NCBI GenBank assembly: GCA_963675665.1
Contig: OY776510.1
Location: forward strand, 3,872,001-3,936,000
Reading direction: 5' to 3'
Source: Spirochaetia bacterium
GTDB taxonomy: Bacteria > Spirochaetota > Spirochaetia > UBA9216
Length of the DNA stretch: 64,000 bases
The notes beneath the pieces were generated by a model. That model saw nothing but the letters and a program-made list of their open reading frames with translations, ran no database searches and had not been told where the DNA came from. Positions 9,098 through 52,100 of this stretch are shown here, piece after piece (within the stretch, counting starts at the first letter, position 1; the number at the start of each line of letters is the position of its first letter). Made by a program: the position numbers and the translations under genes.

Positions 9098-10134
9098 AAA
9101 ATATGATCGGACCGGAAACAACAAGGGAAAAGATTTCCGGTGTCAGAATATTTTTTCTGATACTGATTCCCCTCGGGCTGTTTTTGATTTCGCTCTTTAT
9201 CGGGCGCTATCCCCTCAGCCCGGGGGATATTATGAAAGCCCTTGGAGAGGTTCTTCTCTTCAGGGGCTTCAATGTCCCCAAAACTGTTTATACCATTCTT
9301 TTTAAAATACGCTTTCCCAGAACCATGACTGCGATGCTCATCGGGGCCGCCCTGTCTGTAAGCGGCGCTTCCTTTCAGGGAATGTTCAGGAACCCTCTTG
9401 TAAGCCCTGATGTTTTGGGGGTCTCGTCGGCAGCAGGATTCGGGGCCGCCCTGGCTATCCTTGCATCAGGAAATGCAGCTGTTATTCAGATAGCGGCCTT
9501 CGCCTTCGGAATAACAGGGGTAATTCTGACTTACGGGATAAGCCGTATCTACAAAAGCACCCCCGTTCTCATGCTTGTTCTGTCCGGGGTTGTTGTTTCG
9601 GCTTTTTTTTCAGCTCTTATTTCCGCGACCAAATTCATGGCCGATCCCTACGAAAAACTGCCTGCAATCACCTTCTGGCTGATGGGGAGCCTCAGCGGGA
9701 CAACCATGGAAGACATGCTTGCCGTTCTGCCCGCTATTGCAACGGGTCTTACGGGATTAATGCTGGTACGCTGGAGATTGAATGTCCTGGTAATGGGAGA
9801 TGAAGAAGCCCGTTCCCTCGGGATCAGAACGGAAATCCTGAAAGGGATTATTATTTTCTGCGCGACTATTGTTACTGCAGCCTCAGTATGCGTAAGCGGA
9901 ATGGTCGGTTGGGTCGGGCTTGTTATTCCCCATGTTGGGAGAATGCTTGTGGGGCCGGATCACAAGGTCCTGCTGCCCTCTTCGGCAGTCCTCGGAGCGT
10001 CCTACCTTCTTATAATCGATACCGTTGCCAGAACAGCCATCTCATCCGAGATCCCCCTCGGTATACTGACTGCTGTTATAGGGGCGCCCTTTTTCGCCTA
10101 TCTGATAAGAAAGACAAAAGGGGGCTGGCGATGA
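9094..10134 (+). CDS. FecCD/BtuC family ABC permease
   Basis: IRFPR, QGMFRNPLVSPDVLGVSSAA, GDEEARSLG, GWVGLVIPH. Confidence 0.95.
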   Translation: MKNMIGPETTREKISGVRIFFLILIPLGLFLISLFIGRYPLSPGDIMKALGEVLLFRGFNVPKTVYTILFKIRFPRTMTAMLIGAALSVSGASFQGMFRNPLVSPDVLGVSSAAGFGAALAILASGNAAVIQIAAFAFGITGVILTYGISRIYKSTPVLMLVLSGVVVSAFFSALISATKFMADPYEKLPAITFWLMGSLSGTTMEDMLAVLPAIATGLTGLMLVRWRLNVLVMGDEEARSLGIRTEILKGIIIFCATIVTAASVCVSGMVGWVGLVIPHVGRMLVGPDHKVLLPSSAVLGASYLLIIDTVARTAISSEIPLGILTAVIGAPFFAYLIRKTKGGWR

Positions 10135-31327: not shown

Positions 31328-32878
31328 ATGATAACAATAACCCTTCTTGTTTTAATCATGTTTATATTTTCAGTTCCGGAAATTGGTGCTGATGACGGCA
31401 GCTGGAATACCTCATTCTCAGTACAGGGCGGAAGCATCTACAGTGAGACTGATCATCCGGAAATAATCCTTGAAAAGGAACTGCTTGTATTTGACGGGAA
31501 AAAGACTGCCGCAATCTTTCAGTTCAGAAATACTTCTGCCCGCACAATTACGGTAGACTGCGGATTCCCGGTCAGACATGAAATAGATACAATAGATTAC
31601 GGCGACTATCTGGAAGTTCTTTCAGGGGGCTACGGCGGCGGTGTAATAAAAGCGCTTGAGTGGCTTGAAACGGAAGATATCATCGATCCTGAAGGAATTG
31701 AACCTCCCGGTACAGCCATATTACTGAATGACTACAATAACACCCGCGAGTTTATCGGGCCCGAAGATATATCGGCAGAAATCGATTTTTCAATATCACA
31801 GGACGGTAATCAGGTAAAAATCCGGAACCTGCTTCTGGAACGTCATGCTTCAAGACTCGTTGCTGCGGTGACCTACCATTTCCGCCATAACCTGGTTTTT
31901 CCTCCCGGTGCAGTTTCGACAGTCCGGGTTGATTATACTCAGGATCTTGTTTCCGGCGGCGACAACATGAGCAATTCATACCGTTGGGATTATGTAATCG
32001 GGACCGGTTCGACATGGAAAGGCCCAATCGGATCATTTCTTCTGGCGGTCCCCGCAGATTGGGACGGTGAGACACCTGGTCTTGAAAAGCTTATCGGTAC
32101 AGACGGATTCAATGTATTCGGGGCCCGCGACTATGAACCGGCCCGCATCGAAACCTTCAGGTTTTATTCCTGGGATATGGATTACATGAGTCTCTATATC
32201 TTTCGTGAAGAAACTTTTCCCGCAATGAAAAAAATGTGGCAGACCGGTTCAAGAGAGGTCATGCAGGAAATCAGACCCGTACAGGAGTTTGTCCGGACTG
32301 TTTCCGCGTCATCATTTATCCGTGATCGTATCAATGTATATTGCGCGGACGGCGTGGTAGATCGCGCCGGATTCGATCCTGTCGCCGCTTTTGACGGTCT
32401 GGACGAAACCTCATGGTGCGAGGGGGCCCCGGACGACGGGATTGGCGAATACCTTGAGTGCGTATTGACTGAGCCTGTGTGGGCACTGACGATTAAAAAC
32501 GGTTTTACCCGATTCGCGGCTGAAAACTGGATGTTCGAATACGGAGATTTCGATGAATATATAAAAGACGACAGTCTCGGCCTTAAGGATTACTACAGAA
32601 TGAACAATCGCGTAAAAACCCTTGAGATATCATCTTCAGGCGGGGAACCCGTGTACACGCTCGAATTGGCCGACAGGCGGGATTCACAGACTTTCAGCGG
32701 TATTTTTCTGGAACCGGGCACATGGCGTTTCACAATTCGTTCCGTATATCCGGGGTCGAAGTGGAAAGATACATGTCTTGCGGAATTACGCTTTGTCGAA
32801 AAGCCCTCGGTAAAAACTTTCAAAACATACCTGGATGACACATTCTTTCGGAAACACCTTGCGGGTTTCAGATATTAA
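31328..32878 (+). CDS. Exported protein with DUF4424-like N-terminus and discoidin/NADase-type glycan-binding C-terminal domain
   Basis: Signal peptide; YVIGTGSTWKGPI; AFDG..ETSWCEG..DGIGE, NNRVK, VYPGSKWKDTCLAE. Confidence 0.7.
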   Translation: MITITLLVLIMFIFSVPEIGADDGSWNTSFSVQGGSIYSETDHPEIILEKELLVFDGKKTAAIFQFRNTSARTITVDCGFPVRHEIDTIDYGDYLEVLSGGYGGGVIKALEWLETEDIIDPEGIEPPGTAILLNDYNNTREFIGPEDISAEIDFSISQDGNQVKIRNLLLERHASRLVAAVTYHFRHNLVFPPGAVSTVRVDYTQDLVSGGDNMSNSYRWDYVIGTGSTWKGPIGSFLLAVPADWDGETPGLEKLIGTDGFNVFGARDYEPARIETFRFYSWDMDYMSLYIFREETFPAMKKMWQTGSREVMQEIRPVQEFVRTVSASSFIRDRINVYCADGVVDRAGFDPVAAFDGLDETSWCEGAPDDGIGEYLECVLTEPVWALTIKNGFTRFAAENWMFEYGDFDEYIKDDSLGLKDYYRMNNRVKTLEISSSGGEPVYTLELADRRDSQTFSGIFLEPGTWRFTIRSVYPGSKWKDTCLAELRFVEKPSVKTFKTYLDDTFFRKHLAGFRY

Positions 32879-33011
32879 AAGGACTCAGCATAAGGAAGCG
32901 CCGCAGCTTGCGAGGATGCTCATCTTCAACATCAATTATGTAATGTTCTTTTGCCCCGTCATATGGAAAACCACATTCTGTAAAAGAAAAGGGACTCCTG
33001 GCGCGCCAGTA

Positions 33012-33133
33012 CTGCAGAGGCGGAAGCTGATGTTGTTGTCGCGATTCGACGGATTGTTGTTGTTCCGGTTGGCACAACGCAGGTTATTACCTGAATTGTT
33101 CCAGTTACCGCCACGGTTCAAACGGTTACTGCC
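33012..33133 (-). repeat. DGR template repeat (TR)
   Basis: 122-nt AAC/AAT-rich near-copy of the VR. Ungapped alignment has 30 mismatches, 21 of them at TR adenines. Confidence 0.93.
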
Positions 33134-33176
33134 GTTTATCGACACCTTCCCATAATCGCTAAATTTTTTAGAAAGC

Positions 33177-33301
33177 CAGGGGGTTTACCCCCTGAACCCC
33201 CTTACAATGCCGTTCTTGCGCTCCCTTCGGGGCGCAAAGAACGGCCAGGACAAAATGTAAAAAGGTAAAAAATAAAAAGGTTACGCCGATTTTCAATCGG
33301 C
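33177..33301 (-). other. Three hairpins between VR and TR (DGR cis-element-like)
   Basis: GCCGATT-GAA-AATCGGC over the stop codon (33285-33301); GCCGTTCTT..CCC-GAA-GGG..AAGAACGGC (33209-33245); CAGGGGG-TAAA-CCCCCTG (33177-33194). Confidence 0.75.
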
Positions 33302-34498
33302 TGTCCTGCAGAGGCGGAAGCCGACGTAGTTGCCGCGAAGCGACGGATTGAAGACTTCCCGGGAGGCACAACACAAATATTCACTTGAATCTTCCCAGTT
33401 ACAGCCACGGCCCACACGGTAACCGCCACTTTCTGGTCCCGACGGATCTGTTTCAGACCCGCCGCTGTAGGCAGCATGCCAATCATAACACCATTCATAC
33501 ACATTGCCGCTCATATCCCGCAATCCCAAAGCATTGGCGGTTTTCAAGCCTGCTTCTTTGGTGCCAAAAGTCGGATCTCCACTGCTTCCACTATTGTTGC
33601 CGGAGTACCAGGCATAGTCGCTTATTTTATCAGGGTCTGTTTCATCGGTGTACACAGGACCGCCGCTTACATGATCTCCGCCGTTCCAGTTTGTACCGTC
33701 AATGTACCTTGCTGCGTACTCCCATTCTGCTTCGGTGGGCAATCGGTAACCGTTCTTGCTCCAGTCCACATACACAGCAGCACTGCTTGCAGCATCGGCC
33801 TTGGTATAGTCTGTGGTCAATCCGGCATCGGAATAATAAACCTGTTCAGTATCGGTTATGCTGTCATCCGCCTGGGTCAGGAGATTGCAGAACGCCGCCG
33901 CGTCATACCAATTCACGTAGTAGGCTGGATACTCAGCTCCCGCACCATATCCACTTCCGTCCGGGTCCGTCCCCGGCCAGGTGGTCAACCATACATCTTC
34001 CCATAAGCCCTGGGTAACCTCGGTTTCACCCATCCAGAAGTTTTTGGTTAACGTAACTTCCTGAGTTGTGCTTTCCACATCCTCGCCCATGGTAAAAGTG
34101 CCTCCGGAAGGCACATAGTGCATGTTGAAGTTGGCTGCATTGGCGGTGTGTAATATGGCAGCCCCTGCAATATATGAAAAGGTTGCCGTAACTTCCACTG
34201 CCGATGCGGGCATGGTAAAGGTTGCCGTGCCGCCGTCGCTGCTTATCGTTGCCGGGCTGATGCTGACCCCTGATGCACTTAACGCAACCTGCCGGCCGCT
34301 GTTAAGCGATGCTGTCAGGGTTACAGTGGCCCCCTCTGCTGCCTCGGATACATCGGCATTTAAAGATTCTCCTGATTCCGCTCCACTGGGGCTTACTGTT
34401 ACCGCGTAGGTTGTGGGTGTAGGATCATTCGGTGTGGGACATCCTGCTAAAAGCAGGATTCCTGCAATTGCAATCGCTGCTAGAATAATTTTTTTCAT
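33293..34498 (-). CDS. DGR target lipoprotein: bacterial repeat domain plus FGE-sulfatase/CLec domain with C-terminal VR (TvpA-like architecture)
   Basis: Lipobox LAGC; FTMG, ETEVTQ, YRLPTEAEWEYAAR, N.LGL.DMSGNVYEWC, GFRLC. Confidence 0.92.
   Translation of the reverse strand: MKKIILAAIAIAGILLLAGCPTPNDPTPTTYAVTVSPSGAESGESLNADVSEAAEGATVTLTASLNSGRQVALSASGVSISPATISSDGGTATFTMPASAVEVTATFSYIAGAAILHTANAANFNMHYVPSGGTFTMGEDVESTTQEVTLTKNFWMGETEVTQGLWEDVWLTTWPGTDPDGSGYGAGAEYPAYYVNWYDAAAFCNLLTQADDSITDTEQVYYSDAGLTTDYTKADAASSAAVYVDWSKNGYRLPTEAEWEYAARYIDGTNWNGGDHVSGGPVYTDETDPDKISDYAWYSGNNSGSSGDPTFGTKEAGLKTANALGLRDMSGNVYEWCYDWHAAYSGGSETDPSGPESGGYRVGRGCNWEDSSEYLCCASREVFNPSLRGNYVGFRLCRTAD
33306..33427 (-). 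repeat. DGR variable repeat (VR)
   Basis: 3' end of the target gene; shares the terminal GCTTCCGCCTCTGCAG with the TR. Confidence 0.93.
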
Positions 34499-34577
34499 CT
34501 CTTCCTCCAATTATTATTTCAATTGGCGGCCACGGATAGCCGCCTCTTTATGGACTGTTTTTAGGGCGTGGTATTTC

Positions 34578-34725
34578 CGCTAACGCGCCAGGAATATGCG
34601 AAGTTGAAGTGAAGCCAAAGGAGTGTTTTGCCAATGAGCAAAACCGACTGCCCCTGCTCTGCTTCTCAGCAAGCTTCAATTTGGGTGTAGGCCGTATGGC
34701 CGAGCCGCATATTTGCTTGTTAGAT
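34578..34725 (-). repeat. attC-like site 1
   Basis: Minus strand ATCTAAC...GTTAGCG; inner arms AATATGCG/CGCATATT; homologous to sites 2-4. Confidence 0.85.
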
Positions 34726-34881
34726 GCCGTTTCTTTCATGGTTGATTTATAGTGTTTTTGTCAAATACATGGATGTATTTGACACCATAATTAGTTTCAA
34801 AACTTTTGTCCTTAGTCAGAACTTAATGCTCCCTTTATCTCAGATATAAGCTCACCAATCTTTGTCTTTTCCTCTTCTGAT

Positions 34882-36089
34882 TGTTTAGTGAGAGTATTTC
34901 CCTGACACTCACCCCGAAAAATATATAATTTCATTATGCGGCAGTGCCGCCATTGTCCTCGTCTTTTTCTACTTCCTCAAGGAATACCTGAAAGGGTATT
35001 CTACCCTTCATATTGCGTCCTTGATGTGCTCGTTCATTATTGTAGTACTCCAGAAACTTATCCAGATCTTCCTGCATCTCAGATAATGATTCGTAATATT
35101 TTTCACGACCTTTAATTCTAAAATGCTCATCAAGTAAAGTTCTGTGAAGCCGCTCAACAAATCCATTACTTTGCGGTCTGCAGACCTTTGTTGTCCTATG
35201 CTCTATATCTTCAAGCTGAAGGAATAATTCGAAAGGATGATGGTCCGGTCTTCCGCAGTACTCACGTCCATTGTCGGTAAGCACATTCTTAACCTTCACA
35301 TTATGTTCCTCGAAAAAAGGCAGAACATCATTATTTATTACCTGAACTGCAGTCACCGGCAGCTTATTTGTATACAGCCTTCCCCAGGCATGACGACTAT
35401 GACAATCAATCACTGTTTGTAAATATATTTTCCCTATTCCTTTCAGATGTCCGACCATAAAGGTATCTATCGAAACGAGATAACCAGTATGCTTTGTTTC
35501 GATGTGTCTCTCTCTGAACTCAGGATTAAATCTTTCAAGTAGTTTTATCTGGTCATCATTAAGCTTGAATTTTTTGTTCTTCAATTTTTCTTCCAAGCGT
35601 AAAAGTCGCTGGTGGCGGGTTTCCATTTTATGTCTAACCCATACTCCACGGACCCCGCCGGAGCTTACATTCACACCCTTCAAAGCAAGCTGCTGAGAAA
35701 CTCTCAGACAACCATGAGTTGGGAACTCCAAACTATAATCCAGAATCTCTTTTTCAATTTCAGGTGCTACTCGATTTGGATGTGGATTCCGTGGTCCTGG
35801 TAAGCTGTCGATTAATCCCTGAGATCCGTAGGTTTGATAATTACGTCTTATCTCATAAAATTGCTGCCGGGAATAACCCATAATTCGACATGCCTTACTT
35901 ACATTTCCTAAATCTTCTGCAAGCTCTAACATACTCATCTTTCGTCTCGCAGCTTTCTGTGCTACAGTCTTGTTGGTGGCCATTTGCTCCTCCTGATAAA
36001 TGTTTTTGTGGTGAAATCATTATATCTTTCGGAGGTGTTTTGGCCACCTATTTTTTAGCCAACTGTCAGGTTAATACGATCACTGTTCA
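34882..36089 (-). mobile_element. IS481 family insertion sequence
   Basis: Imperfect 26-bp TIRs TGTTTAGTGAGAGTATTTCCCTGACA / TGAACAGTGATCGTATTAACCTGACA, flanked by the TTCTGAT direct repeat (34875-34881, 36090-36096). Confidence 0.92.
34934..35983 (-). CDS. IS481 family transposase
   Basis: N-terminal HTH LGNVSKAC; DDE integrase core (IDT, LTDNGREY, NGFVER). Confidence 0.95.
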   Translation of the reverse strand: MATNKTVAQKAARRKMSMLELAEDLGNVSKACRIMGYSRQQFYEIRRNYQTYGSQGLIDSLPGPRNPHPNRVAPEIEKEILDYSLEFPTHGCLRVSQQLALKGVNVSSGGVRGVWVRHKMETRHQRLLRLEEKLKNKKFKLNDDQIKLLERFNPEFRERHIETKHTGYLVSIDTFMVGHLKGIGKIYLQTVIDCHSRHAWGRLYTNKLPVTAVQVINNDVLPFFEEHNVKVKNVLTDNGREYCGRPDHHPFELFLQLEDIEHRTTKVCRPQSNGFVERLHRTLLDEHFRIKGREKYYESLSEMQEDLDKFLEYYNNERAHQGRNMKGRIPFQVFLEEVEKDEDNGGTAA

Positions 36090-36251: not shown

Positions 36252-38570
36252 TTACCCCCTGAAACTTTTAAGATTATATTTTTTTACTCTTTTTTTTATA
36301 GATGGTTTGCCACCGTCTGTAATTTCTGCAATATAATCAACTACACTTTTTGAGTTTATTTTACCTTCTAGAGCTTCTGAACGAATTATTATTTTTTCTG
36401 CACTTTCACACAAAATAATATTCTGAGCATCTCCTAACATTGGAATTGTAGCATTATGAGATACAAGTATAATTTGTTTTTTACTTTTAATATTTTTTAT
36501 TGCTTTTATTAATCCAACATTAATGTAATTTGTTGCTAAATTATCTTCTGGTTGATCAATAATTAATGGTGCAGTGTCACCTAAATATCCCAATATGAGA
36601 TCCAAAATAACTGATGTTTTCCATCCTGCACTTAATTCTTCAAAATTTTTACCTGAAGCGGTAGTGATACGATATTTTATCTTATTAAGTTTATCAAATT
36701 CATGATATATCTTTGATTTGAAATCATCATATGATTGTATTTTAGGATTTTGTTTTCGAAATTTATCAATATATAAATTTTCTGGACTGATTTCTTTAAA
36801 AGAATTAATTCGATTATTTGCTTTCAAATATATATTTAAGACTTCTAAAAACTTATCTTTCGTAAGTTGAAAATCATTTTCAATGAATAATTCATGATCC
36901 ATAACTTTTTCTTTTTCAGTTTTACATTTTATAGAGTATTTGGATATTTTTTCTAATGTATTATAAAAAATATCTAGTTGCCTTTTGTATTCAGATACTT
37001 TATTTATTAATCTTTCAAAATCCAATTTTTTACTTTGGTGTTTTTGATTTTCTAAACTTAGATTTCTATCAAATTCTTCTTTATAATCATTTATCTTTCC
37101 TCGAATGATATTCTCACTTATAGATATATTATATGCTTTTAAAAGCTTCTCTTCTAACTCATTAAAAATTGATTCGTCAATTTCAATAAATGGATTTTCC
37201 TCAATAAAACTTTTTATAGAAGTAAGATTATTCAAATGCTTTTGGTAAGTTAATTCTGGATATTCAATCTTTCTGATTGTATTGGAACTTGGAAGTAAAA
37301 GGGAAAAAACATTATGTTTGATTTTTTCAGTTAATACCAACCTAGAAATTACTGGAATTTGTTTAAAATCATGCTGTATGCTTTCAATATTCTCAATAGA
37401 ATCTATTAATGAATCTAGATCCTGTTTTAATCCTATTAAAGCGTCTCTTACCTTAGCAATAATCTCAGTATTCCCTGGAAAAACTTTTTTTATTATTGGG
37501 ATATCATCAATATCTTTTTTGCTATTTTCATGTATTAATTGAATTATATAATTTTGATCAATATAATGAGGAACTAAGCCTGACGGGTTCCTAATCTCTA
37601 TATCATTAACAGAAAATTTTTCATAAATTATATTTATTTCACTATTATTAAGCTTTCTAAACACTGAATCAACAAATAATGTCTTTCCACTAGAAGAACC
37701 ACCAATAACAACATTTAAGCCAGGAGAAAGCATAACATCTATATCAATAAATTCATTATTTAGCTTCACTTCACTTATAAATTCAGACCAGTGTTGGGGA
37801 GGTTCTTTAGAATATACCATTCTTGAGGATTCTGACAAAGCTAATCTTAAACCACTAAATGTTGGTTGTGAATAAATCCACGTAGGAATAAATTCACTTG
37901 CATTTGGATCCTTAGCGCTAGGATAATTACTTGGATTATAATTATCTGTACAAGTAACTAAATTTATGAACTCTCTAATACCAAGCCTATCAAAATATTC
38001 CAATGTATCTTGTAAGCCCCTTTCATTTCTTGCAGTAAATCCATCGAATTGATTGTAATAGATATTTCTTTCTAATATTGAATCATATCTGACACCAGTT
38101 TCAGTTGATATAGACTTATGAAATTGTTTATGATTTTGACCACCATGTGGTAGTAGTATAAAATCATAATTATCAAAGTTTCTAATTATTGTTTCAATAT
38201 TTAATTTAAAATCATCATCACCATCAATTATCTTATTTGGATACAAATTATCCAATATTTCATTTATATCATCTATTTCTGCTTCTGTAATATTATCTAT
38301 ATTGAAAAATATATGGCAATGATATAGAGGCTTGTTATCATAATTAAAAATGTGCAATTCTACACCTAAAACAACGTTTTTTGTTTTTTCTAATAATTTC
38401 ATATATGCAAGCTTATTTATCGTATTATGATCTGTTAAAGATATTAGAAAATCCGAATTTGCTGACACTTCAGATATTTTTGATAAAAGTAAATCTACAT
38501 TATATTCTTCATTAAGCTGATTAGGATTCTCTGAAGTGTGAATATGTAAATCTGTATAAATAGGTTTCAC
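36252..38570 (-). CDS. PHP phosphoesterase-ABC ATPase fusion (Ppl/TrlF-like candidate defence protein)
   Basis: DLHIHT, LTDHN, GVE, HCH; Walker A GGSSSGKT; LSAGWK; IIDQPEDNL; VSHN. Very AT-rich. Confidence 0.85.
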   Translation of the reverse strand: MKPIYTDLHIHTSENPNQLNEEYNVDLLLSKISEVSANSDFLISLTDHNTINKLAYMKLLEKTKNVVLGVELHIFNYDNKPLYHCHIFFNIDNITEAEIDDINEILDNLYPNKIIDGDDDFKLNIETIIRNFDNYDFILLPHGGQNHKQFHKSISTETGVRYDSILERNIYYNQFDGFTARNERGLQDTLEYFDRLGIREFINLVTCTDNYNPSNYPSAKDPNASEFIPTWIYSQPTFSGLRLALSESSRMVYSKEPPQHWSEFISEVKLNNEFIDIDVMLSPGLNVVIGGSSSGKTLFVDSVFRKLNNSEINIIYEKFSVNDIEIRNPSGLVPHYIDQNYIIQLIHENSKKDIDDIPIIKKVFPGNTEIIAKVRDALIGLKQDLDSLIDSIENIESIQHDFKQIPVISRLVLTEKIKHNVFSLLLPSSNTIRKIEYPELTYQKHLNNLTSIKSFIEENPFIEIDESIFNELEEKLLKAYNISISENIIRGKINDYKEEFDRNLSLENQKHQSKKLDFERLINKVSEYKRQLDIFYNTLEKISKYSIKCKTEKEKVMDHELFIENDFQLTKDKFLEVLNIYLKANNRINSFKEISPENLYIDKFRKQNPKIQSYDDFKSKIYHEFDKLNKIKYRITTASGKNFEELSAGWKTSVILDLILGYLGDTAPLIIDQPEDNLATNYINVGLIKAIKNIKSKKQIILVSHNATIPMLGDAQNIILCESAEKIIIRSEALEGKINSKSVVDYIAEITDGGKPSIKKRVKKYNLKSFRG

Positions 38571-38752
38571 ATAAGACTCCTTTATACTATATTTTTAATA
38601 ATCTAATTCAAGCCTCTTTCTTGCACGCCATGGACGGCGGGCTCTTACTTAAACACTCCCAACCATTAAAGAAATTGCCTATAACGTTCCGGGCATATGC
38701 GAAGTTGAAGCGCAGCCAAAGGAGTGTTTTGCCGTAAGCGGTAATTCTTCCC

Positions 38753-40285
38753 CTATGACTTTATCTGTTCAGCGGTCAGGTTGAATGGTAGCAGTTTTTC
38801 ATAATCTGCGGGTTCTTCACAGTACGGTAACTTGCGAAAAACATAGTAGAAGTAATCATAGACCGATAGCTTCTGCAATTTAGCAGATTCAACAAGACTG
38901 TAGAGTACCGCCGAAGATTCGGCTCCATGTTCGGTGTCGGAAAACAACCAGTTCTTCCGTCCGATTACAAACGGCCGGATTGCATTTTCAGCAATGTTGT
39001 TCGACGGAGTAAGCAGCGGATCTTCCAGGTATAACTTTAACTGAACCCAGTTATCAAGCGTGTATGATATCGCCTTCCCGAAAGCCATTGTAGGCGGAGT
39101 CCCTGCTGCATGTTTAGTAAGCTGTTTGAATAAAGAATCAAGGATAGATCCGGCCTGGTTGGCTCGATGCTTCTGAAAGCCTTTTTTGGAATATTGCTCG
39201 CGCAGGGCTTCAAGCTCGAACAGGTCTTTAATCAATTCAAGTATATGTTTTACTTCCGGAGATTTAGACATCTCCCAGTATTTATAAAAATACCTTCTGG
39301 CATGCGCCCAACATAAAACATGACGAGGTCCATCATGTCCATCTTTTCGCAGCCTTTTCAAAGCAGTGTGATAGGCCTCATAATCATCAGTCTGCAACCA
39401 ACCGGTATAACCTTGCAGAAAATCATACGGTATTTCATGAGAACGGCCTGTTTCATACTGAAACACTACCGATTTTTTATCAGGTTTTCCGCCAAGAAAG
39501 ACCCACATCCAGGATTTATCCTGTGCTTTGCGACCTTTTTCTTTCAAAACCTGTACCCGGGTTTCATCGGCATTTATTATCGGCCCGTTTTTAATATTAT
39601 CTTTAAGCAACTCATAAATCGGTCTGCATTTATCAGCGCACTTTATTGCCAATGTGCTCAGTGTTGCCCTTGGAATATCTGCACCAATTGTATTCAGTCT
39701 CTTGCTCTGACGGTAGAACGGGAGAGCATATTCAAACTTCTCATTTATGATCCACGCGAGAAGGCTTTCATCGGCAATGCTCCCGGCGATCAGATGTTTA
39801 ATCCCTTCAGCAGTCTGCACCCCCGAAGTTTCATCGGTGGTTCCTTCACAATTTCTGCAAACATATTTTTTCTTTATCTCACGCCTGACTACTACTTTCG
39901 CAGGAACTATGCATAGCCGTTCGGAGACATCTTCACCAATACAAATCTTCTCAGTTCCGCAAGCGCATGTTTTATCTTCCTCATCAATATCGTATTCAAT
40001 AATTTCTCGGGGAAGATCTTCTGACAGAGCTTTTCTACCGACACCCTTACGAACAGTTTTCGTGTGAGCTTTTACTTCACGGGTCTCAGTTTCTATTTCT
40101 TCGTTCTGCTCAAATGCCGTATCCTCTGCCTCGTTGAAAAGTGACGCCTGTTTTTTATCTTCATTCGTGAGCTTCTCTGATTTTGTTCCGAAATGAAGAG
40201 ATTGCAAAAGCTGGACCTGCTCTTCTAATCGGGCAATTTTTATTTTTAATTTCTCATTCTCTTCAAGCAAAGCCTGGCTGTTCAT
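38753..40285 (-). CDS. tnpC: IS66 transposase TnpC
   Basis: FG.KSEK, zinc finger, NADET, LQTDDY, CWAHARR, NN.AE.AIRP..IGRKNWLF. Confidence 0.96.
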   Translation of the reverse strand: MNSQALLEENEKLKIKIARLEEQVQLLQSLHFGTKSEKLTNEDKKQASLFNEAEDTAFEQNEEIETETREVKAHTKTVRKGVGRKALSEDLPREIIEYDIDEEDKTCACGTEKICIGEDVSERLCIVPAKVVVRREIKKKYVCRNCEGTTDETSGVQTAEGIKHLIAGSIADESLLAWIINEKFEYALPFYRQSKRLNTIGADIPRATLSTLAIKCADKCRPIYELLKDNIKNGPIINADETRVQVLKEKGRKAQDKSWMWVFLGGKPDKKSVVFQYETGRSHEIPYDFLQGYTGWLQTDDYEAYHTALKRLRKDGHDGPRHVLCWAHARRYFYKYWEMSKSPEVKHILELIKDLFELEALREQYSKKGFQKHRANQAGSILDSLFKQLTKHAAGTPPTMAFGKAISYTLDNWVQLKLYLEDPLLTPSNNIAENAIRPFVIGRKNWLFSDTEHGAESSAVLYSLVESAKLQKLSVYDYFYYVFRKLPYCEEPADYEKLLPFNLTAEQIKS

Positions 40286-40323
40286 AAATAAATTTTAACA
40301 TGATTAAATTCCGGTGTGAAGCA

Positions 40324-40668
40324 TTAAACGCGGGAATATGATAATTCTTTATGCGCGTTGAAGAAATCTATCCCGTCCAGCAGCATCTTAAGTTCCTCGA
40401 ATCTGATTTCTCTGGCCTCTTCTTCTGTTTCAGGCCAGGGAAACTTGTTCTTCTCCAACCGTTTCTGCCATAGGCAGAATCCGTTTCGATCCCAGTAGAC
40501 AATTTTCAAAAGTTTTTGTTGGCCGTTACAGAACAGAAACAAACTTTTCGAAAACGGGTCATTATGCATTACGTTCTGAATCTGAAGGCTCAATCCGTTT
40601 ACCCCTTTTCTTAAATCCGTTTTGCCGGGCCGTATAAAATATCGGTAATCTGTATAATCGAAAATCAT
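40324..40668 (-). CDS. tnpB: IS66 accessory protein TnpB
   Basis: TDLRKG.NGL, KIVYWD.NGF.LW.KRLE..KF.WP. Confidence 0.95.
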   Translation of the reverse strand: MIFDYTDYRYFIRPGKTDLRKGVNGLSLQIQNVMHNDPFSKSLFLFCNGQQKLLKIVYWDRNGFCLWQKRLEKNKFPWPETEEEAREIRFEELKMLLDGIDFFNAHKELSYSRV

Positions 40669-40961
40669 TCAAGTTCTCCGATTATTCTCAGAACTGATTT
40701 CAGCTCGGCTTCATCAAACCCGGCAGTTATTGATATTAAAAACTTTTTGGACTTCAATACAATTGGTGCAGCTGCTACAGATTGAACGGGTTTTATTTCT
40801 ATTATCTCTGAGCTCTTTGACAGGTTCATACCGAACCGTTTTCTGTGCTTATAGAAAGTATTTGGATGAATTTCAATCTCTTTGCAAAACTCCGGAATTG
40901 ATTTTCCGCTCATCTGTTGTTGTTCAAATATTTCTTCCCAGTTTTTGATTATCTTCTTCAT
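40665..40961 (-). CDS. tnpA: IS66 accessory protein TnpA
   Basis: W....QQMSGKSIPEFC..IEI..TFY HTH; GGAGG RBS before 40961. Confidence 0.88.
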   Translation of the reverse strand: MKKIIKNWEEIFEQQQMSGKSIPEFCKEIEIHPNTFYKHRKRFGMNLSKSSEIIEIKPVQSVAAAPIVLKSKKFLISITAGFDEAELKSVLRIIGELE

Positions 40962-41195
40962 TTCATTCCTCCGTGATTCTTTTCCCGGAGGATAGTACAT
41001 TTTCAGATTTTCGCAAGAAGGAAAGAATTACCGCTTACGTTTTGCCAAAGAGCAAAACCGACTGTCTTGTTCAACTTCTTCGCAAGCTTCAATTTGGACG
41101 AAGGGCGAATGCCCGTAGTCGCATATGCCCTGTTATAAGCTGTGTTTCCGCTCTTCGACCAGGCCGCACGGCGGAGTCAAGGTCTGGTCTCTTCA

Positions 41196-44100
41196 TTATC
41201 GCTCCCCTTTTTTATCTACGCTTATATTTTCAATTCTATGTATTTCTAGCATTTCAATCCCAAATTCTTCACATATTTGCTGTTTATATTTGAAATCTTC
41301 AATTTCAAACATATATAAATATTTTCGAACTGTCTGTGATAACACATTTTTGGCTAAGGGATTGTGATCCAAATCTTTATTTAATCGTCTTAGTAAAGCT
41401 ATAGGAAATTTAATAAAATGATCTACTTTTATTACAGCATCAATTAATCTGTATGCTGTAGATTGATTAACCTTCAATAATCTTTCAAAAGTCACTGATA
41501 GATTTTCTGAACCAACAAATTGTGAAACTCTAGATATAAAAGTATAAGTAAGGATCGAGCAAATTCTTGAAAGATAAGCTATTGCATAAGCTTCAACAAT
41601 TTCACGATCTTCAGTATCGTATACGGGTTGAGTTTGCATGATCTTACTTATCTCAGTAGCTATCTTCTCAGGATTTTCCATAATTGATCTTAATATTAAA
41701 CCAAGAGGTTTTAATAGAAGAAGATAAGTATTTTCTACCAATTTTAATTTTTCATCTCCTTCTAATGATGCATAAGAATTTTTAACAACTTGTCCAATTA
41801 TTTCAGCCAACTTTATCGAATAGGATATTTTATCAACAATTGTAAGCTCTTCTTCAATATCAATACAACCATCACAATCCTCTTCCTTTTTTTCCTTATC
41901 TTCTATTTCATCTCTTTGCTTTAAGTCTGAGTTTCTAGCATCTTCAACATTAATATGATTTAAAACCAATTTAGGCATCTCATTGTAGATTTTATTTAGC
42001 TTTTTAATATCATCATCAAGTCTTATAGGCTCTTCTTCACTAAATAATAAAGTTGCGGCATTTAATAATGAATCAATAATAATTGGATCTTTACTCAAAT
42101 AAGACAGAAACATCAAAATATTTGAATAATTTTCATTGTGTGGTTTTGATGCCATATTTGAAATTGTCTCTTTGATTTTTGTCTTAGATATTTTATCTGA
42201 CATATATTTTGCTGTAAAAAAGAAGAACATATATTTATATGCAAAAAAGTAACGACCATCTTTATGTAATAATACTTCTGACTGAAGAGTTTCTTTCAAT
42301 ATTGTATCAATTCTATTTTGAATATCATGTCTCTCTGCATGGTCGTAACAGAAGCTCTCAAAATCAAGATCATCCAAATACTTATGGTCGTTATTAAACA
42401 TTGTAAACGCAAGAGAAGATAAAAAATTATTAAATGCATTAATTGCTTCTGGAGATGGATTACTATTTTTCAATGAATCTAAAATTAATGTCTGATAATA
42501 ATAACCATATGAACTCTGATGAAAATTAGTAGGATCGATTTCTGTGATATTTTGTAATAGTACTAGAATAATCAATGGATATGAAGGAGTTAAATTTTTA
42601 CCAACTATTTTATTTATAATATCTGTAACATTATCTAATTCTCTTAAATGTTCATTTATACTGTTATAAGGATCATTATTCAAGGAATACCATTTTTTAA
42701 TTAATAAGGATCGTCTAAAATTCCCAAATTCTTTAATTTGGAATAGTTTAAATCCATTGTATATAATTGAAGCCTCTGGCTCACTTCCTGTTAATTCTTC
42801 AATCTCTAATAGATCATGTGAAGTGAGTACGATATTTATAAAAATATCCTTAAGAGAATCCATATATTTCCTTCTGAATCTCCTAGGAATACTGGATTCA
42901 TCAAAATCATCAATCAATATAACTTTCTTATCATTATCGATTGTATCGAATTCACTTTCCTTTATATTTTTATATTGTAATAAAGCTTCTCTTCTAATTA
43001 GCGATTGGAGCTCTTTATTATTTGTAGATTTAATTTTAGCTCCATCTATCCAAATCGGCATATACCCATCATGCAACAATGTACGATAGAGCTTTTTTAA
43101 TACTGTGGTTCTACCACTTCGACCTTGCCCTAAAATTATGTATTTCGAACCTGTCTTTTTATTAAAATTGAGTGCATTCTCACTATTAATAACTGAAGAT
43201 TCATAAGATACTCTTTTTAGCGGATCTGGATTCAAATGATGAAAATCTGGATATACAAATATATCATCTAATTTTAAATTAGTTATTTGTGGATGATGTA
43301 AATTTGCCCCTATATCATTAATAAAATTCTTTATCTCTGCTTTTAAAGATAAATAACTTTCATTTTGTCTGGGAATAATAAGAGATATTTGTTCATCATC
43401 AACATTATTTTTAATAAGTTCGCCCTCTTTTATATCAAGTATATATTTTTCGAGCTTATAATTTCCTTCACTATTTTTCTCTATGAGATATGAATAAAAA
43501 GCATTATCTTTAGAATCTAAGAAACTGCTTCCATCAGAATAATATGTAATTTGAGATTTTTCATTGCTTCTCATACTACTTCCTAACCAATGCTCATGGC
43601 CAGTTAAAACAATATTTGAACAACTTTCAATATAATCTCTTAATCTCTTAGAACTCCAAGATTTAAACCAATTTAAAGGGTGATGCATTAAAGTTATTGA
43701 AATACCATTGCTAGGTTGCATATATTCTGATATCAGTTGCTCTGGCAGAATTATCTTTCCTTGTACCTCCGGGTTCGAAGTCATCCAAGCACTATTTATA
43801 GAAAATATATTTAATACATTATCATCAACATTAATGTTTTTTTTCCATATTATTTGGTTGTCTAGAAATGCTCCCGACATAGAATTAAATTCATTAATAA
43901 AGTCAAAAAAAGATCGTTGAGGTTCCGTACATATTTCAATTGTTTCATTATCAAGTTCTTCACTATCATCTTCATTACTTATAATATCACGTATCAATCT
44001 TTCTCTTAGTTTATTTTTTTTCTCAAAATAACAATCATGATTACCGGGAACAATAATTATTTCAGCTCTCGGTTTTCTTAGTTTATTATATTCGTCAAGT

Positions 44101-44303
44101 AAATCAGATAATAAAATATAGGCATTCAAATAACCATCAATATTACTTTGATTAGAAATATCACCAGTGATTAATAGAAGAACTAAATCACATGAATCTG
44201 CCAAATTTTTAGTAACTGTAAAAATATTGTTAAAATATGATTTCAATTCATCAGTTATTTCTCCGATATGCAAATCACTTAAATGCAAAATTAAATACTT
44301 CAT
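41196..44303 (-). CDS. Metallophosphoesterase-STAND/NACHT-like NTPase fusion (candidate defence protein)
   Basis: LHLSDLH, ITGD, PGNHD, HHP, GHEH; P-loop GQGRSGRT; Walker B VILIDD; long helical C-terminus. Confidence 0.85.
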   Translation of the reverse strand: MKYLILHLSDLHIGEITDELKSYFNNIFTVTKNLADSCDLVLLLITGDISNQSNIDGYLNAYILLSDLLDEYNKLRKPRAEIIIVPGNHDCYFEKKNKLRERLIRDIISNEDDSEELDNETIEICTEPQRSFFDFINEFNSMSGAFLDNQIIWKKNINVDDNVLNIFSINSAWMTSNPEVQGKIILPEQLISEYMQPSNGISITLMHHPLNWFKSWSSKRLRDYIESCSNIVLTGHEHWLGSSMRSNEKSQITYYSDGSSFLDSKDNAFYSYLIEKNSEGNYKLEKYILDIKEGELIKNNVDDEQISLIIPRQNESYLSLKAEIKNFINDIGANLHHPQITNLKLDDIFVYPDFHHLNPDPLKRVSYESSVINSENALNFNKKTGSKYIILGQGRSGRTTVLKKLYRTLLHDGYMPIWIDGAKIKSTNNKELQSLIRREALLQYKNIKESEFDTIDNDKKVILIDDFDESSIPRRFRRKYMDSLKDIFINIVLTSHDLLEIEELTGSEPEASIIYNGFKLFQIKEFGNFRRSLLIKKWYSLNNDPYNSINEHLRELDNVTDIINKIVGKNLTPSYPLIILVLLQNITEIDPTNFHQSSYGYYYQTLILDSLKNSNPSPEAINAFNNFLSSLAFTMFNNDHKYLDDLDFESFCYDHAERHDIQNRIDTILKETLQSEVLLHKDGRYFFAYKYMFFFFTAKYMSDKISKTKIKETISNMASKPHNENYSNILMFLSYLSKDPIIIDSLLNAATLLFSEEEPIRLDDDIKKLNKIYNEMPKLVLNHINVEDARNSDLKQRDEIEDKEKKEEDCDGCIDIEEELTIVDKISYSIKLAEIIGQVVKNSYASLEGDEKLKLVENTYLLLLKPLGLILRSIMENPEKIATEISKIMQTQPVYDTEDREIVEAYAIAYLSRICSILTYTFISRVSQFVGSENLSVTFERLLKVNQSTAYRLIDAVIKVDHFIKFPIALLRRLNKDLDHNPLAKNVLSQTVRKYLYMFEIEDFKYKQQICEEFGIEMLEIHRIENISVDKKGER

Positions 44304-44383
44304 ATGCACTCCATATACATTCTTTATTCTTCATCGCCCGTCGGCCGGAGGTCCGGGCGTCTTCCTCTTAGCGGAAACATTGC

Positions 44384-44532
44384 TTATAACGTTCCCAGCA
44401 TAACCGAAGTTGAAGCGCTACCAAAGGAGTGTTTTGCCATAGAGCAAAACCGACTGACCATGCTCTGCTACTTTCGCAAGCTTCAATTTGGGTGGAGGCC
44501 GAATGGCCGGAACCGGTTATGGTGTGTTAGAT
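44384..44532 (-). repeat. attC-like site 3
   Basis: Minus strand ATCTAAC...GTTATAA; arms CATAACCG/CGGTTATG. Confidence 0.87.
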
Positions 44533-44659: not shown

Positions 44660-46819
44660 TCAAGATGTTATAGCTTTTACATCATTATATAAAACACATA
44701 GGTGTTTATCTGACATGTCTATTATAGGTTCAAACATAAATGAATTAACATGGATATTCTCTGGAGTCATCAAATTAACTCTTTCTAATATCTTTGTATT
44801 CTCATTATCATCAACAAATTTTCTTTTAAATTCTTTAAATAGTTTACCAGTTTGGTTTTTTTTAATTCTACTAACAAAATCTCTATCATCTATTTTATTT
44901 ATCATAAAATCTTCAGCAAAAATGCGAATAGCCATGGATAAAACTATTTTTTTTTCTAAACAAAACCCAGATGAATCATCACTATTCACATATACTTCTG
45001 CAGTTTCACAAATAATATCTTGTATATTTTTATTATCATCTAAATCAAATTTGAATTCTATATCATTAAAAAATGATTCATAAATTTCTTTGATTTTACC
45101 AACAGTGATATTCTCACTATTTTCTTTTATATGTAATACTGAAGTTAAATCGCTAAAAATACTATTATTTCCAGTATATTCCGATAAATTCCTTGTAAAA
45201 GGTATTGATGCTATAAGCTTACTTGCATTGTCTAAATTCTTTTTCCAGAAAATAAACGGATTTGCAATATATGAATATTTTAATTTTTCAAGTTTGATAT
45301 TTCCTTCATCTCGCTCAGCAATATAAGAGCACATATATCGGTTCATTCCGATTCTGTCTTGTATCGTTCTAAAAAAATCATAATTATGCGTTAGAATAAT
45401 CATATAAAAATCATGATAATTACAAATATCTTTTAAGTATTCAATTATTGCGTATTTATTCTTATAATCAAATGAATCTGCAATATCATCTACAATAATT
45501 AAGTTTTCTGTACCTTTCTTTTTTCTTGATTCTATTTCAAAGATAATATTTAGCAGATATAGTGTTCTTCTTTCTCCTTGACTTAGTATTTTAATTAATA
45601 CGTCTTCATCAATTGGTTTATTTCCATGATAATTATATTTAATACTAGGGGCTACATCTTGAAGAACTGTTTCATCTTTATTCTCTATCTCTATATTATA
45701 GGGAACATAAAAGCGTCTATTAAATATATCTAATACTTTTTCCCAATCGGTTTTTTCTTCTTTTGCAGTTTCTACAACTTCTCTAATTTTTTCTTTATTC
45801 GTTCTGTATATATCAATTATTTCAGTATATTCAATTATCTTTTCAAAAATAAATGATAATACTACTTTTCTCTTAAATTCTTCAGGTTCACCTAATTCAG
45901 TAATTATTTCTTGATTTTCAAATAAGTATTCTCTAAGCGTTCTTAATTGTGCATTTGAAACTTTTTTATCAATTTTTTCAAATAGCTTTGAAATATCTTC
46001 ATCTTCTAATATTCTTTCTTTCTCTTCTTTAATAATCTCACTAAATGTCTCTTGATCGGAGATTTCTGTTTTATCACCATTATTATTTAAATTTATAGAA
46101 TGTTCTGCTTTAAAGAAACCATTGTCTGTTAATTGTTTATGGACTGTTGTTGCATTATAATGATTAAAATCTTTCTTCAAATATGTTGAATCTTGGATTA
46201 GCTGGTCATATCTATTTATATATTCACCTATTTCAGATTTAACAGATTTAATAAAATCAAAATTCTTTTGCTCGAATAAAATACCATAGTCGATAATGTC
46301 ATTATTGATTAAATTGTCTTTTTTGATTTCTGTTTCAAGTGTTAAAAGTAATTCTAAAAAATTATCATTATTAAACGTTTTCTCAATTTCATCAGTAATA
46401 TTTGCAGTTCTTTTTAATTTGAATAATGGTGTTATTGCTTCAATAAATTTTTCTTTCCCCTTATTGATATCCTCATATAATGCTTCATAAATTGATCTTA
46501 ATTCTTCATTAACAAGCAAGACTGTCATAGCATCTGATTTATAAGTTCTATCATAGGGATTAATTACAAAAACTTTATTAAAATCAATAATATTGTTTGA
46601 TTCATCTACAATAGTACGTAATGATTCCTTATCATTGTAAACTTCATCCTTACTATTATTACCTTTTGAAAAATCATCAAATGTTCTTGAAAAAGATGTT
46701 TTCATTACACCATTAGGAGCATATATAACATATACATTTTTATTATCGCTAAAATCAAATTCAAATTCTAAATCTTCAATTCCATAACAGTTCTTAAAAT
46801 CAATTTTTAATTTCTCCAC
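44660..46819 (-). CDS. ABC/SMC-like coiled-coil ATPase (AAA_13/RloC-like architecture; candidate defence protein)
   Basis: APNGVMKTS, long coiled coil, LSQGERR, IIVDDIADSFDYKNK, LTHN. Confidence 0.8.
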   Translation of the reverse strand: MEKLKIDFKNCYGIEDLEFEFDFSDNKNVYVIYAPNGVMKTSFSRTFDDFSKGNNSKDEVYNDKESLRTIVDESNNIIDFNKVFVINPYDRTYKSDAMTVLLVNEELRSIYEALYEDINKGKEKFIEAITPLFKLKRTANITDEIEKTFNNDNFLELLLTLETEIKKDNLINNDIIDYGILFEQKNFDFIKSVKSEIGEYINRYDQLIQDSTYLKKDFNHYNATTVHKQLTDNGFFKAEHSINLNNNGDKTEISDQETFSEIIKEEKERILEDEDISKLFEKIDKKVSNAQLRTLREYLFENQEIITELGEPEEFKRKVVLSFIFEKIIEYTEIIDIYRTNKEKIREVVETAKEEKTDWEKVLDIFNRRFYVPYNIEIENKDETVLQDVAPSIKYNYHGNKPIDEDVLIKILSQGERRTLYLLNIIFEIESRKKKGTENLIIVDDIADSFDYKNKYAIIEYLKDICNYHDFYMIILTHNYDFFRTIQDRIGMNRYMCSYIAERDEGNIKLEKLKYSYIANPFIFWKKNLDNASKLIASIPFTRNLSEYTGNNSIFSDLTSVLHIKENSENITVGKIKEIYESFFNDIEFKFDLDDNKNIQDIICETAEVYVNSDDSSGFCLEKKIVLSMAIRIFAEDFMINKIDDRDFVSRIKKNQTGKLFKEFKRKFVDDNENTKILERVNLMTPENIHVNSFMFEPIIDMSDKHLCVLYNDVKAITS

Positions 46820-46958: not shown

Positions 46959-47105
46959 ATCTAACGGCCCGGGTTAAGCGAAGCTGATGCGCAACTTAAG
47001 GAGTGTTTTGCGAATGCGCAAAACCGACTGGCCCTGCTCTACTTCTTCGTCAGCTTCAGTTTGGGTGGAGGCCGAATGGCCGGAACCGCTTAACCATTGT
47101 TAGAT
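46959..47105 (-). repeat. attC-like site 4
   Basis: Minus strand ATCTAAC...GTTAGAT; arms GGTTAAGCG/CGCTTAACC. Confidence 0.87.
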
Positions 47106-47885: not shown

Positions 47886-48701
47886 CTACTCAACAATTTT
47901 TAATTCTTTTAATATTTGCAGCATTACTGTTTTTGCTTCACCATATTTACCCGGAAAATCAGATTTATTTTTTTCAAGATTTGTAGAAATAAAATAGACA
48001 TTGCTATTTGTCTCGATATATCCTACAAACCAGCTATAATAAACATTATCAAGCCTCATAACCGTTCCGGTTTTTCCTGATAATTTATAATTTTCATTTT
48101 CATCTAATGCTAAAAGCTCTTTTACTATATTCTGCGATCTCTTTGAAAATGGCAAATCCAATGAGTATAATTTCTTTATAAGTTCAATTTGCTCCATTGC
48201 AGATATTTTCATATTTCCTTCTAACCAGAAGATATCCACTCCGGAATCAATATTCTGATTACCGTAATTTAATTTATCCAGATATTCCTGCATTCGCTCA
48301 AACCCGATCCGCCTTGCAATTTCCTGATAATACCAGACTACAGAGCTTTTCATTGCACTTTCTAGGGTTTGATTTTTATTCCAGGATTTAAATTCATATT
48401 CTGTTCTATCCCATTCAATTTGATAATCTTTGTCAGAGGCAACTCCTGATTCCAAGGCAATGAGTGAATTATAAATTTTAAATGTGGAGGCCGGCAAAAT
48501 ACCCGATTCAGCCAAGTCTTCGTTATAAATAGAATATATTTTTTTATTTTGATCATAGATTATTATGCAACCCTGAGAATCAATTGCCTCAAAATATTCT
48601 CCAAAATCTTGAACCACAATTTTTTTTCCACTTTGACAACTTGTAGTCAGCATGATGAAGCCAAGTGAAATAATGATTAATATTGATTTATACTTTTTCA
48701 T
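47886..48701 (-). CDS. Class D beta-lactamase (OXA-like) or BlaR-sensor-like lipoprotein
   Basis: PASTFK, SVV, YGN, FWL, KTG motifs; lipobox TTSC. Confidence 0.88.
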   Translation of the reverse strand: MKKYKSILIIISLGFIMLTTSCQSGKKIVVQDFGEYFEAIDSQGCIIIYDQNKKIYSIYNEDLAESGILPASTFKIYNSLIALESGVASDKDYQIEWDRTEYEFKSWNKNQTLESAMKSSVVWYYQEIARRIGFERMQEYLDKLNYGNQNIDSGVDIFWLEGNMKISAMEQIELIKKLYSLDLPFSKRSQNIVKELLALDENENYKLSGKTGTVMRLDNVYYSWFVGYIETNSNVYFISTNLEKNKSDFPGKYGEAKTVMLQILKELKIVE

Positions 48702-51640: not shown

Positions 51641-51891
51641 TTAACCTCATTTTCTTATTACATATTTGAAATCATACATATATTTCATATTTATTAATTT
51701 TATCAACTATTTCACGAAGTCTGAATCACCCCTAAATGACCCACATATTTGTTACATTCCTTAAAGATGAATTTATAATTCCGTATAACATATTATGCTT
51801 AGTGTTTTACTTAAATACTATTAAATTCTTCTCCTGCCAGCCATGGATGGCAGGCTCTTCCTTAAAAAATCCCAACCAAGAAAGAAATTGC

Positions 51892-51912
51892 ATCTAACTC
51901 AGTTTTATACGC
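51892..51912 (-). other. attI-like site at the head of the array
   Basis: Minus strand GCGTATAAAACTGA-GTTAGATG followed by the conserved cassette leader, with no attC body upstream. Resembles attI1 TAAAACAAAGTT. Confidence 0.55.
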
Positions 51913-52100
51913 AATAGCGAACAATGTATCAGCAATAATGCCCAATTGCAGGTGATCTCCTATAAAACCCCATAACTGCATTATTTGCTTTTATTCTTCC
52001 GGCAGTATAACTCCTGCGTTTTTACCTTGCAAAATTATACACCCGTAAAATGTATATATCAAATTAGCATTTAACTCATATTCCTTTGTAATACAATGAA

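Follow-up and report, generated by a model that had tools for sequence, protein, structure and literature searches.

The DNA analysed here is a 64,000-nt (64-kb) window, a term used for this whole stretch, from the genome of a Spirochaetia bacterium (positions 3,872,001–3,936,000 of contig OY776510.1, assembly GCA_963675665.1). It was found to contain a locus of a diversity-generating retroelement (DGR), consisting of a target gene and a pair of repeats, the template repeat (TR) and the variable repeat (VR). The target gene on the minus strand (33293..34498) encodes a 401-aa lipoprotein with a signal peptide, an InlB B-repeat-like region and a C-terminal FGE-sulfatase/C-type-lectin domain. The open reading frame (ORF) was listed as 33293–34510 with a TTG start; translation more probably starts at the ATG at 34498, which gives the N-terminus MKKIILAAIAIAGILLLAGC, a lipoprotein signal with a lipobox. 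Pfam matches were obtained to FGE-sulfatase (1e-37) and to the InlB B-repeat-like family Flg_new_2 (3.5e-5). The best solved relative was the variable protein TvpA of Treponema denticola (PDB 2y3c, E=9.5e-30), and the alignment with TvpA extended through the VR to ..GFRL.C.

A single long direct repeat was present in the region (33004–33133 versus 33298–33427), 130 nt in length with 75% identity and a spacing of 294. The downstream copy in the reading direction of the gene, the TR (33004..33133, with a 122-nt core at 33012–33133, minus strand), does not code for protein, is rich in adenine (37 of its 130 nt), contains AAC and AAT codons in the frame of the VR, and is overlaid by a 69-aa ORF. 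The VR (33306..33427, minus strand) makes up the final approximately 41 codons of the target gene ahead of an RTAD-stop tail, and thus lies at the 3′ end of a C-type-lectin/FGE-sulfatase ORF, as is usual for DGRs. A first-pass annotation made from the sequence alone had described a 122-nt alignment with 30 mismatches, 21 of them at TR adenines, and a recount on the minus strand (TR 33012–33133, VR 33306–33427) gave the same figures: 21 of 36 TR adenine sites were mismatched compared to 9 of 86 non-adenine sites. Over all 130 nt the corresponding figures were 21 of 37 and 12 of 93 (Fisher one-sided p=7.7e-7), and the reciprocal test for enrichment at VR adenines gave p=0.67. The bias at adenines of the TR, with none at those of the VR, sets the direction as TR to VR. 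All 21 changes at adenines were found at codon positions 1 and 2 (11 A>G, 8 A>T and 2 A>C), and the nine non-adenine mismatches at codon position 1 (five) or 3 (four). The position of the mismatches also agreed with the first-pass annotation, in that all nine non-adenine mismatches lie within alignment index 12–71 (codons 5–24), and the final 10 mismatches (index 72–105) involve adenines only. The 16 bases after them are identical in the two copies.

When a 42-nt pattern was taken from the 3′ part and its adenines were replaced by N, it matched the window only at the TR and the VR (2 matches; 0 in 100 shuffles), and no further TR- or VR-like copy was found within the 64 kb. The same pattern gave 0 matches in 185,579 species-representative genomes, a result that says little since the collection evidently does not contain the present locus either. 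The share of mismatches at adenines was 70% over 122 nt (21/30) and 64% over 130 nt (21/33). At the latter figure the pair was not flagged by our adenine-bias screen, for which the threshold was at least 70% of mismatches at A. Published cut-offs for DGR pairs are more than 80% of mismatches at A (PMC7517822) or, as a rule given in PMC5758913, only A-to-N differences with minor exceptions. The adenine bias of the present pair is highly significant, yet its 70% falls under both published cut-offs.

The end of the pair was found to be organized as in known DGRs, with an identical GC-rich 3′ block of the initiation of mutagenic homing (IMH) type and an inverted repeat just past the VR. The IMH-like anchor is a 16-nt block identical in VR and TR, GCTTCCGCCTCTGCAG, located at 33306..33321 on the minus strand with its TR counterpart at 33012–33027. 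A hairpin, GCCGATT-GAA-AATCGGC (33285..33301, minus strand), begins 4 nt past the TR/VR identity, includes the stop codon of the target gene and is followed by a T-run. As DNA it folds with −7.8 kcal/mol (z=−2.74; 6 of 200 shuffles were equally good), and nothing comparable folds at the matching place after the TR (z=0.45). According to Guo et al. (PMC3240598), DGR hairpins have a GC-rich stem of 7–10 bp and a 4-nt GRNA loop, are located 4–34 bp past the VR, and are required for efficient homing. The place and the stem length of the present hairpin fit this published form, whereas its stem has only 4 GC pairs and its loop is a 3-nt GAA. It resembles a DGR target-recognition hairpin/cruciform.

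In a protein database search with the target, 8000 candidates were scored and 5721 of them were relatives, the best with 60–80% identity; the few named homologues were from Spirochaetales, Marispirochaeta and Spirochaeta. The tail ..R[LFPV]C[RK]T.. (mostly GFRLCRTAD) was present in 80 of the best 120 homologues. A common scaffold was seen in these 80 proteins (R4, V5, R7, G8, G9, W11, L18, R19, C20, A21, R23, P28, R31, G36, F37, R38, L39 and C40, then RTAD), with hypervariable positions interspersed among the invariant scaffold residues. In these alignments the family looks diversified by DGRs, lineage by lineage. The RTAD-stop tail was kept in most of the 80 homologues, across 32–80% identity (R in 75, T in 66, A in 72 and D in 58). 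The 5′ arm of the hairpin would be encoded by the Ala-Asp-stop part of this family-wide tail, and since the A-D-stop codons would form both the 5′ arm and the loop, the conservation of the tail suggests selection at DNA level on a target-recognition element.

The possibility that no DGR is involved, and that an ordinary partial duplication of the 3′ end of the gene has diverged by chance, was weighed against these results. The 30% of mismatches that lie away from adenines would be expected of such a duplication, but the adenine bias (p=7.7e-7) is one-directional and confined to codon positions 1 and 2, it is the non-coding copy that is rich in adenine, diversification by DGRs is visible across the target family, and the hairpin follows the VR only. 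This explanation is therefore regarded as extremely improbable, and the repeat pair is a genuine DGR TR/VR pair on a TvpA-like surface lipoprotein.

In contrast to a complete DGR cassette, neither a DGR-clade reverse transcriptase (RT) beside the TR nor an accessory gene of the Avd or HRDC type was found in the window. No RVT family was detected with Pfam among the 51 ORFs of at least 115 aa across the 64 kb, and no RVT_1 among 38 smaller ORFs at 27.9–40.1 kb. A tblastn search of the window with three DGR RTs, which came from related loci fetched in this study and were each confirmed as RVT_1, gave a best E value of 0.1 at a place far from the locus. Avd has its own Pfam model, and no Pfam family of any sort was detected in the small ORFs at 27.9–40.1 kb. 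The spacer between the VR stop codon and the TR (33134..33292, minus strand) is 159 nt long, contains two further strong hairpins, and showed no Pfam family in its overlapping ORFs; it is too short for avd, as the first-pass annotation had concluded from a distance of about 160 nt. The usual place of the RT, between the TR and the next gene, is occupied by a gap of 125 nt (32879..33003, minus strand) without any RT remnant or likeness to the dispersed repeat described below, and the earlier statement that no RT precedes the convergent gene can be extended to the whole window. This convergent neighbour on the plus strand (31328..32878) encodes a 516-aa protein with an NADase-type glycan-binding (discoidin-like) domain, and it is the boundary of the DGR rather than a part of it. 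A scan of 32600–35000 for promoters and terminators gave no signal above shuffles. The combination of a target and a TR-VR pair with missing machinery and with mobile elements nearby corresponds to that of the degenerate or RT-less DGR loci described in PMC10907252.

Decay on the TR and on the VR was judged against the 80 homologues. The Gly residue in GFRLC is shared by 79 of the 80; here the TR encodes Ser (AGC) and the VR Gly (GGC), and this is the most IMH-proximal of the adenine mismatches. The difference is more simply explained by a G>A substitution in a template that selection no longer maintains than by DGR mutagenesis. Besides, the TR encodes Leu (TTG) at a site where the homologues have Val (56), Ile (11) or Leu (4). 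The VR has changed two scaffold residues relative to the TR, RGG to RGC (GGT>TGT) and LRC to LCC (CGT>TGT), both of which had been pointed out in the first-pass annotation and were confirmed. The resulting Cys residues stand where 76 of the 80 homologues have Gly and where 51 have Arg (5 have Cys), respectively.

On balance, and by a judgement only a little better than even, we read the locus as a degenerate DGR locus, in which the pair was formerly written with an RT available, rewriting has stopped, and both copies are now drifting. In a working DGR, an RT and an accessory gene, both missing here, would produce cDNA from the TR RNA, with mutations at the adenines, and this cDNA would replace the VR. 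The present VR would have been written from the local TR, or from a recent ancestor of it, at a time when the RT was available. The pair would since then no longer have been rewritten, and with ordinary substitutions collecting in both TR and VR the target would now behave as a fixed allele. This reading is supported by the divergence at 9 of 86 non-adenine sites and by an adenine share of 70%, which is under the cut-offs of the field. It is also supported by the elements of the IS481 and IS66 families and the low-GC defence island directly upstream. There is also precedent: more than half of the candidate DGRs were reported to have been discarded as inactivated in PMC5758913, and the leftover targets of Treponema strains (PMC4891356) and the replaced RT genes of Thiohalocapsa (PMC10907252), both described below, are further cases.

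Three Glu codons in the VR, all GAA, face AAC, AAT and AAC in the TR. According to PMC5758913, the repertoire of AAC under adenine mutagenesis comprises 15 amino acids. Neither AAC nor AAT can give Glu by adenine changes alone, so the TR in its present form cannot have been the source of the whole VR. Glu-, Lys- or Gln-type residues were found in relatives at positions 12, 16 and 24 (7, 12 and 6 of 80, respectively), and Lys codons are present in Treponema TRs (PMC4891356); on these grounds an older TR with third-position adenines is plausible. The same observations bear on the explanation that the VR was written, or last written, from another template, either a master TR beside a distant RT or an older TR with AAA codons, with the local TR dead or diverged. 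In addition to the Glu codons, the clustering of the five other non-adenine differences in the 5′ half fits this explanation. However, a master TR would have to depart from the family scaffold (G in 76/80, R in 51/80) by encoding RGC and LCC, no second copy was found in the window, and no close paralogue of the target from the same contig was present among the best 120 homologues. Another template as the last source of the VR is thus judged to be quite unlikely.

Related loci were collected with the target protein as query, which gave at least 80 loci, all with at most 42% identity. In the 80 related loci listed, a DGR RT was found in three (L013, L032 and L040) and a convincing TR-VR pair in three (L013, L032 and L038); in L013 and L032 no more than about 1.5 kb separates RT and TR. 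The remaining pair, L038, is located on a contig of an unrelated metagenome-assembled genome (MAG; JANSXW010000079.1), where the DGR target (8795–11049 of the locus) combines a caspase and an FGE-sulfatase domain and the TR begins about 250 nt past its stop codon. All 15 TR-VR mismatches of L038 are at adenines, and a convergent Uma2-family gene is found 144 nt past the TR. No RT was found in the 16.9 kb of this locus (8.8 kb upstream and 5.9 kb downstream), although one may lie in the other 10.6 kb of the contig. The organization of L038 is thus similar to that of the present locus, with a compact target, spacer and TR without avd, followed by a convergent gene. L038 differs in having adenine-only mismatches, by which it looks recently written, and in its N-terminal domain; similarity to the target of the window was restricted to the C-terminal domain (33% identity, tblastn, query residues 125–400). 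The adenine-only pair of L038 in the absence of a nearby RT shows that an RT-distant TR can look freshly used.

Among the other related loci, L040 from a Treponema MAG contained an FGE-sulfatase/Listeria-Bacteroides-repeat target, an ORF with an HRDC domain and a DGR-type RT in this order (3770–6879). No TR-VR pair was detected in its 7.3 kb, and it could therefore not be used as a comparator for spacing. Short adenine-biased repeats in L034, L044, L066 and L068 (55–71 nt) and tandem repeats in L010 were not counted as DGRs.

Several points weigh against the reading of the window locus as a drifting remnant. No functional element that the sequence reveals is damaged, be it the target ORF, its lipoprotein signal, the hairpin or the IMH-like block, and the TR retains an open frame rich in AAC and AAT codons. 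Non-adenine differences were reported by Wu et al. (PMC5758913) in 23% of the DGRs judged functional, with up to 11 per target, and they are said there to be frequent near the Treponema lineage, for which remote targets served in trans are also described as typical. L038 shows the same compact layout of target and TR with 15 of 15 mismatches at adenines and no RT in 8.8 kb upstream and 5.9 kb downstream. The search for an RT covered the 64-kb window of a contig of about 5.15 Mb. Finally, the restriction of the non-adenine mismatches to the 5′ 72 nt, which hold 52 of the 86 non-adenine positions (P=0.008), fits a later partial rewriting from the 3′ end.

The locus might instead be a live non-autonomous unit, in which the local TR is transcribed and copied by a distant DGR RT and the cDNA enters the adjacent VR, recently only in its IMH-proximal part. 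Besides the intact target, IMH-like block and hairpin and the polarity of the non-adenine mismatches, experiments with truncated VRs in PMC3240598 are consistent with such a unit, since 5′ integration of cDNA is possible at internal sites and 3′ integration is fixed. Moreover, avd, TR and brt function from a plasmid in trans (PMC3240598, PMC5758913), diversification of RT-less loci in trans has been inferred in Thiohalocapsa (PMC10907252), and L038 has a clean adenine-only pair (15/15) without a nearby RT. Against this stand the absence of any RT from the 64-kb window, the mismatches of the VR to the local TR at 9 of 86 non-adenine sites, and the adenine of the TR in the codon of the Gly that 79 of 80 relatives share, which would be costly for a working template. 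We consider a live unit of this kind possible but rather unlikely.

The first-pass annotation had likewise proposed either a truncated, drifting DGR or a unit served in trans. Both proposals are retained here as the two readings between which the locus is bracketed. The suggestion added to them, that recent retrohoming was limited to the IMH-proximal part, was weakened. Its polarity of P=0.008 becomes P=0.049 when the terminal 16-nt identical block is set aside, as was done because this block defines the end of the repeat, and the most IMH-proximal adenine mismatch is more suggestive of a G>A substitution in a TR without selection than of DGR mutagenesis. The 5′/3′ polarity is thus statistically weak and only suggestive.

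Among the known systems closest to it, the locus resembles the DGR of T. denticola, which is likewise found in a spirochaete and has a lipoprotein target with a C-terminal FGE-sulfatase/C-type-lectin VR (TvpA, 2y3c). The Treponema DGR was reported to have seven non-adjacent targets (PMC5758913); an RT located far away can serve such targets, and leftover targets persist in strains that have lost the core DGR (PMC5758913, PMC4891356). These remote or leftover targets are described in PMC4891356 as "without RT genes and TRs", whereas the present locus keeps a TR beside its target. Unlike the Treponema leftovers it lacks only the RT and accessory genes, and it carries nine non-adenine differences.

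Similarity was also found to Thiohalocapsa PB-PSB1, for which Dore et al. (2024; PMC10907252) reported one complete locus for each DGR class together with degenerate loci, replacement of RT genes by transposon-derived repeats through the activity of transposons or MITEs (small transposable elements with inverted repeats), and diversification of some targets in trans. As here, the degenerate loci of that genome are located among conflict systems and mobile elements. According to the same paper, the trans-served VRs of Thiohalocapsa match the TR of the complete locus at every non-adenine site and their activity is visible in population reads, whereas the match of the present pair is imperfect and the locus is known from sequence alone. 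The DGR of the Bordetella phage BPP-1 shares with the present locus the adenine mutagenesis from TR to VR, a C-type-lectin target whose 3′ end is the VR, and an identical GC-rich 3′ block followed by a hairpin that includes the stop codon (PMC3240598). It differs in that avd, TR and brt are contiguous with the target, whereas here avd and RT are missing, and in that the GC-rich stem of its hairpin is 8 bp long and closed by a GRNA loop of 4 nt, compared to the 7-bp stem (4 GC pairs) and 3-nt GAA loop found here (PMC3240598). RT-less DGR loci, leftover targets and diversification in trans have thus already been published (PMC10907252, PMC4891356, PMC5758913), and the present locus is a degenerate DGR of a known sort that involves no new mechanism.

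Upstream of the target gene, a palindromic repeat of about 150 nt, an IS481-family transposase, a gene for a 772-aa AAA-like protein, a complete insertion sequence (IS) of the IS66 family and two anti-phage genes were found in this order. The nearest copy of the palindromic repeat (34578..34725, minus strand) lies 80 nt upstream of the target start and is given here as context only. Other copies were located at 44384–44532 and 46959–47105, with a fragment at approximately 51810–51920, and one copy was split by the IS66 element (nhmmer matches at 38632–38733 and 41039–41145). Including its surroundings, the sequence common to the copies spans approximately 250–290 nt. Read along the gene strand, the repeat starts with ATCTAAC and ends with GTTAGAT, GTTATAA or GTTAGCG; its inner boxes covary (ATATGCG/CGCATAT, ATAACCG/CGGTTAT and TTAAGCG/CGCTTAA), and in single-stranded form the copies fold over their full length. 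In two of the copies, homology ends just past the 3′ box. This architecture resembles that of integron attC sites. No integrase or tyrosine-recombinase family was detected in the window with Pfam, and no Rfam family matched the repeat.

A gene in an integron cassette would be expected to be bounded on its 3′ side by an attC site of its own, in an array beside intI, whereas the attC-like repeat was found upstream of the target and none after the TR. The 150 nt after the TR aligned to the repeat copies no better than shuffles, and a candidate for a decayed attC half-site on the downstream side of the TR was rejected, since its alignments to four repeat copies did not exceed the mean of 300 shuffles. 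The GC content of the unit of target and TR was about 0.50 compared to 0.26–0.38 in the island. Because no repeat follows this unit and its GC content differs, the repeat array was treated as a neighbour of the locus and not as its carrier.

The IS481-family transposase gene (34934..35983, minus strand; NF033577, 256.6 bits, cut-off 224) is located immediately upstream of the nearest repeat. The complete IS66 element (approximately 38753–41040; TnpA 40665–41000, TnpB 40324–40668, transposase 38753–40285) sits inside a palindromic repeat copy, with ends of the GTAAGCG type and an 8-bp direct duplication, GGCAAAAC. The low-GC defence island (GC 0.26–0.38) consists of three single genes on the minus strand separated by the repeat (36252–38570, 41196–44309 and 44660–46819). 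One of the defence genes showed a full-length match to the NCBIfam "anti-phage protein" NF053861 (882 bits, cut-off 790) and to PADLOC PDC-S60, another a full-length match to PADLOC PDC-S46 (E=9.5e-246), and the 772-aa protein a match to TrlF/Ppl-like AAA ATPases below the cut-offs. In the same minus-strand run as the defence genes, a 271-aa protein of the class D beta-lactamase family is encoded at 47886–48701 (NF012161, 266.3 bits, cut-off 250), which also matches the BlaR1 sensor domain below the cut-off; its gene lies upstream of the repeat copy at 46959–47105 and is not bracketed by two copies. The sole Rfam match in the window was a molybdenum cofactor (Moco) riboswitch at 5638–5757 on the plus strand (RF01055, 58.3 bits, gathering threshold 36), upstream of a gene for a 748-aa radical-SAM protein and an operon for an ABC transporter of the iron-siderophore type.

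A more far-reaching possibility is that compact modules of target and TR without enzymes are a recurrent, transferable and non-autonomous form of DGR that uses any compatible host RT. The present module follows the last copy of an attC-like array, whose cassettes are single-gene anti-phage systems. It shares with L038 a layout of target, structured spacer of about 160–250 nt, TR and a convergent gene within about 125–145 nt, and its 5′/3′ polarity would on this view record partial rewriting by an RT acting in trans. This reading is considered unlikely. No description of a TR that travels with its target and not with the RT was found in the portions consulted of the literature on DGRs as non-autonomous or integron-cassette elements; in PMC3521204, as far as its consulted text goes, "non-autonomous" refers to mobile elements of Bacteroides and the link to integron cassettes is only speculation. 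If an RT is present elsewhere in the genome, the present locus and L038 would show that the TR can travel with the target rather than with the RT.

DGR finders anchor on the RT and therefore miss RT-less loci. The locus described here is a clean natural example of what remains of a DGR after enzyme loss, with a template, a target, a recognition hairpin and datable drift on both copies. Such an example can help to calibrate these finders and to decide at what point a surface protein that was hypervariable has become fixed.

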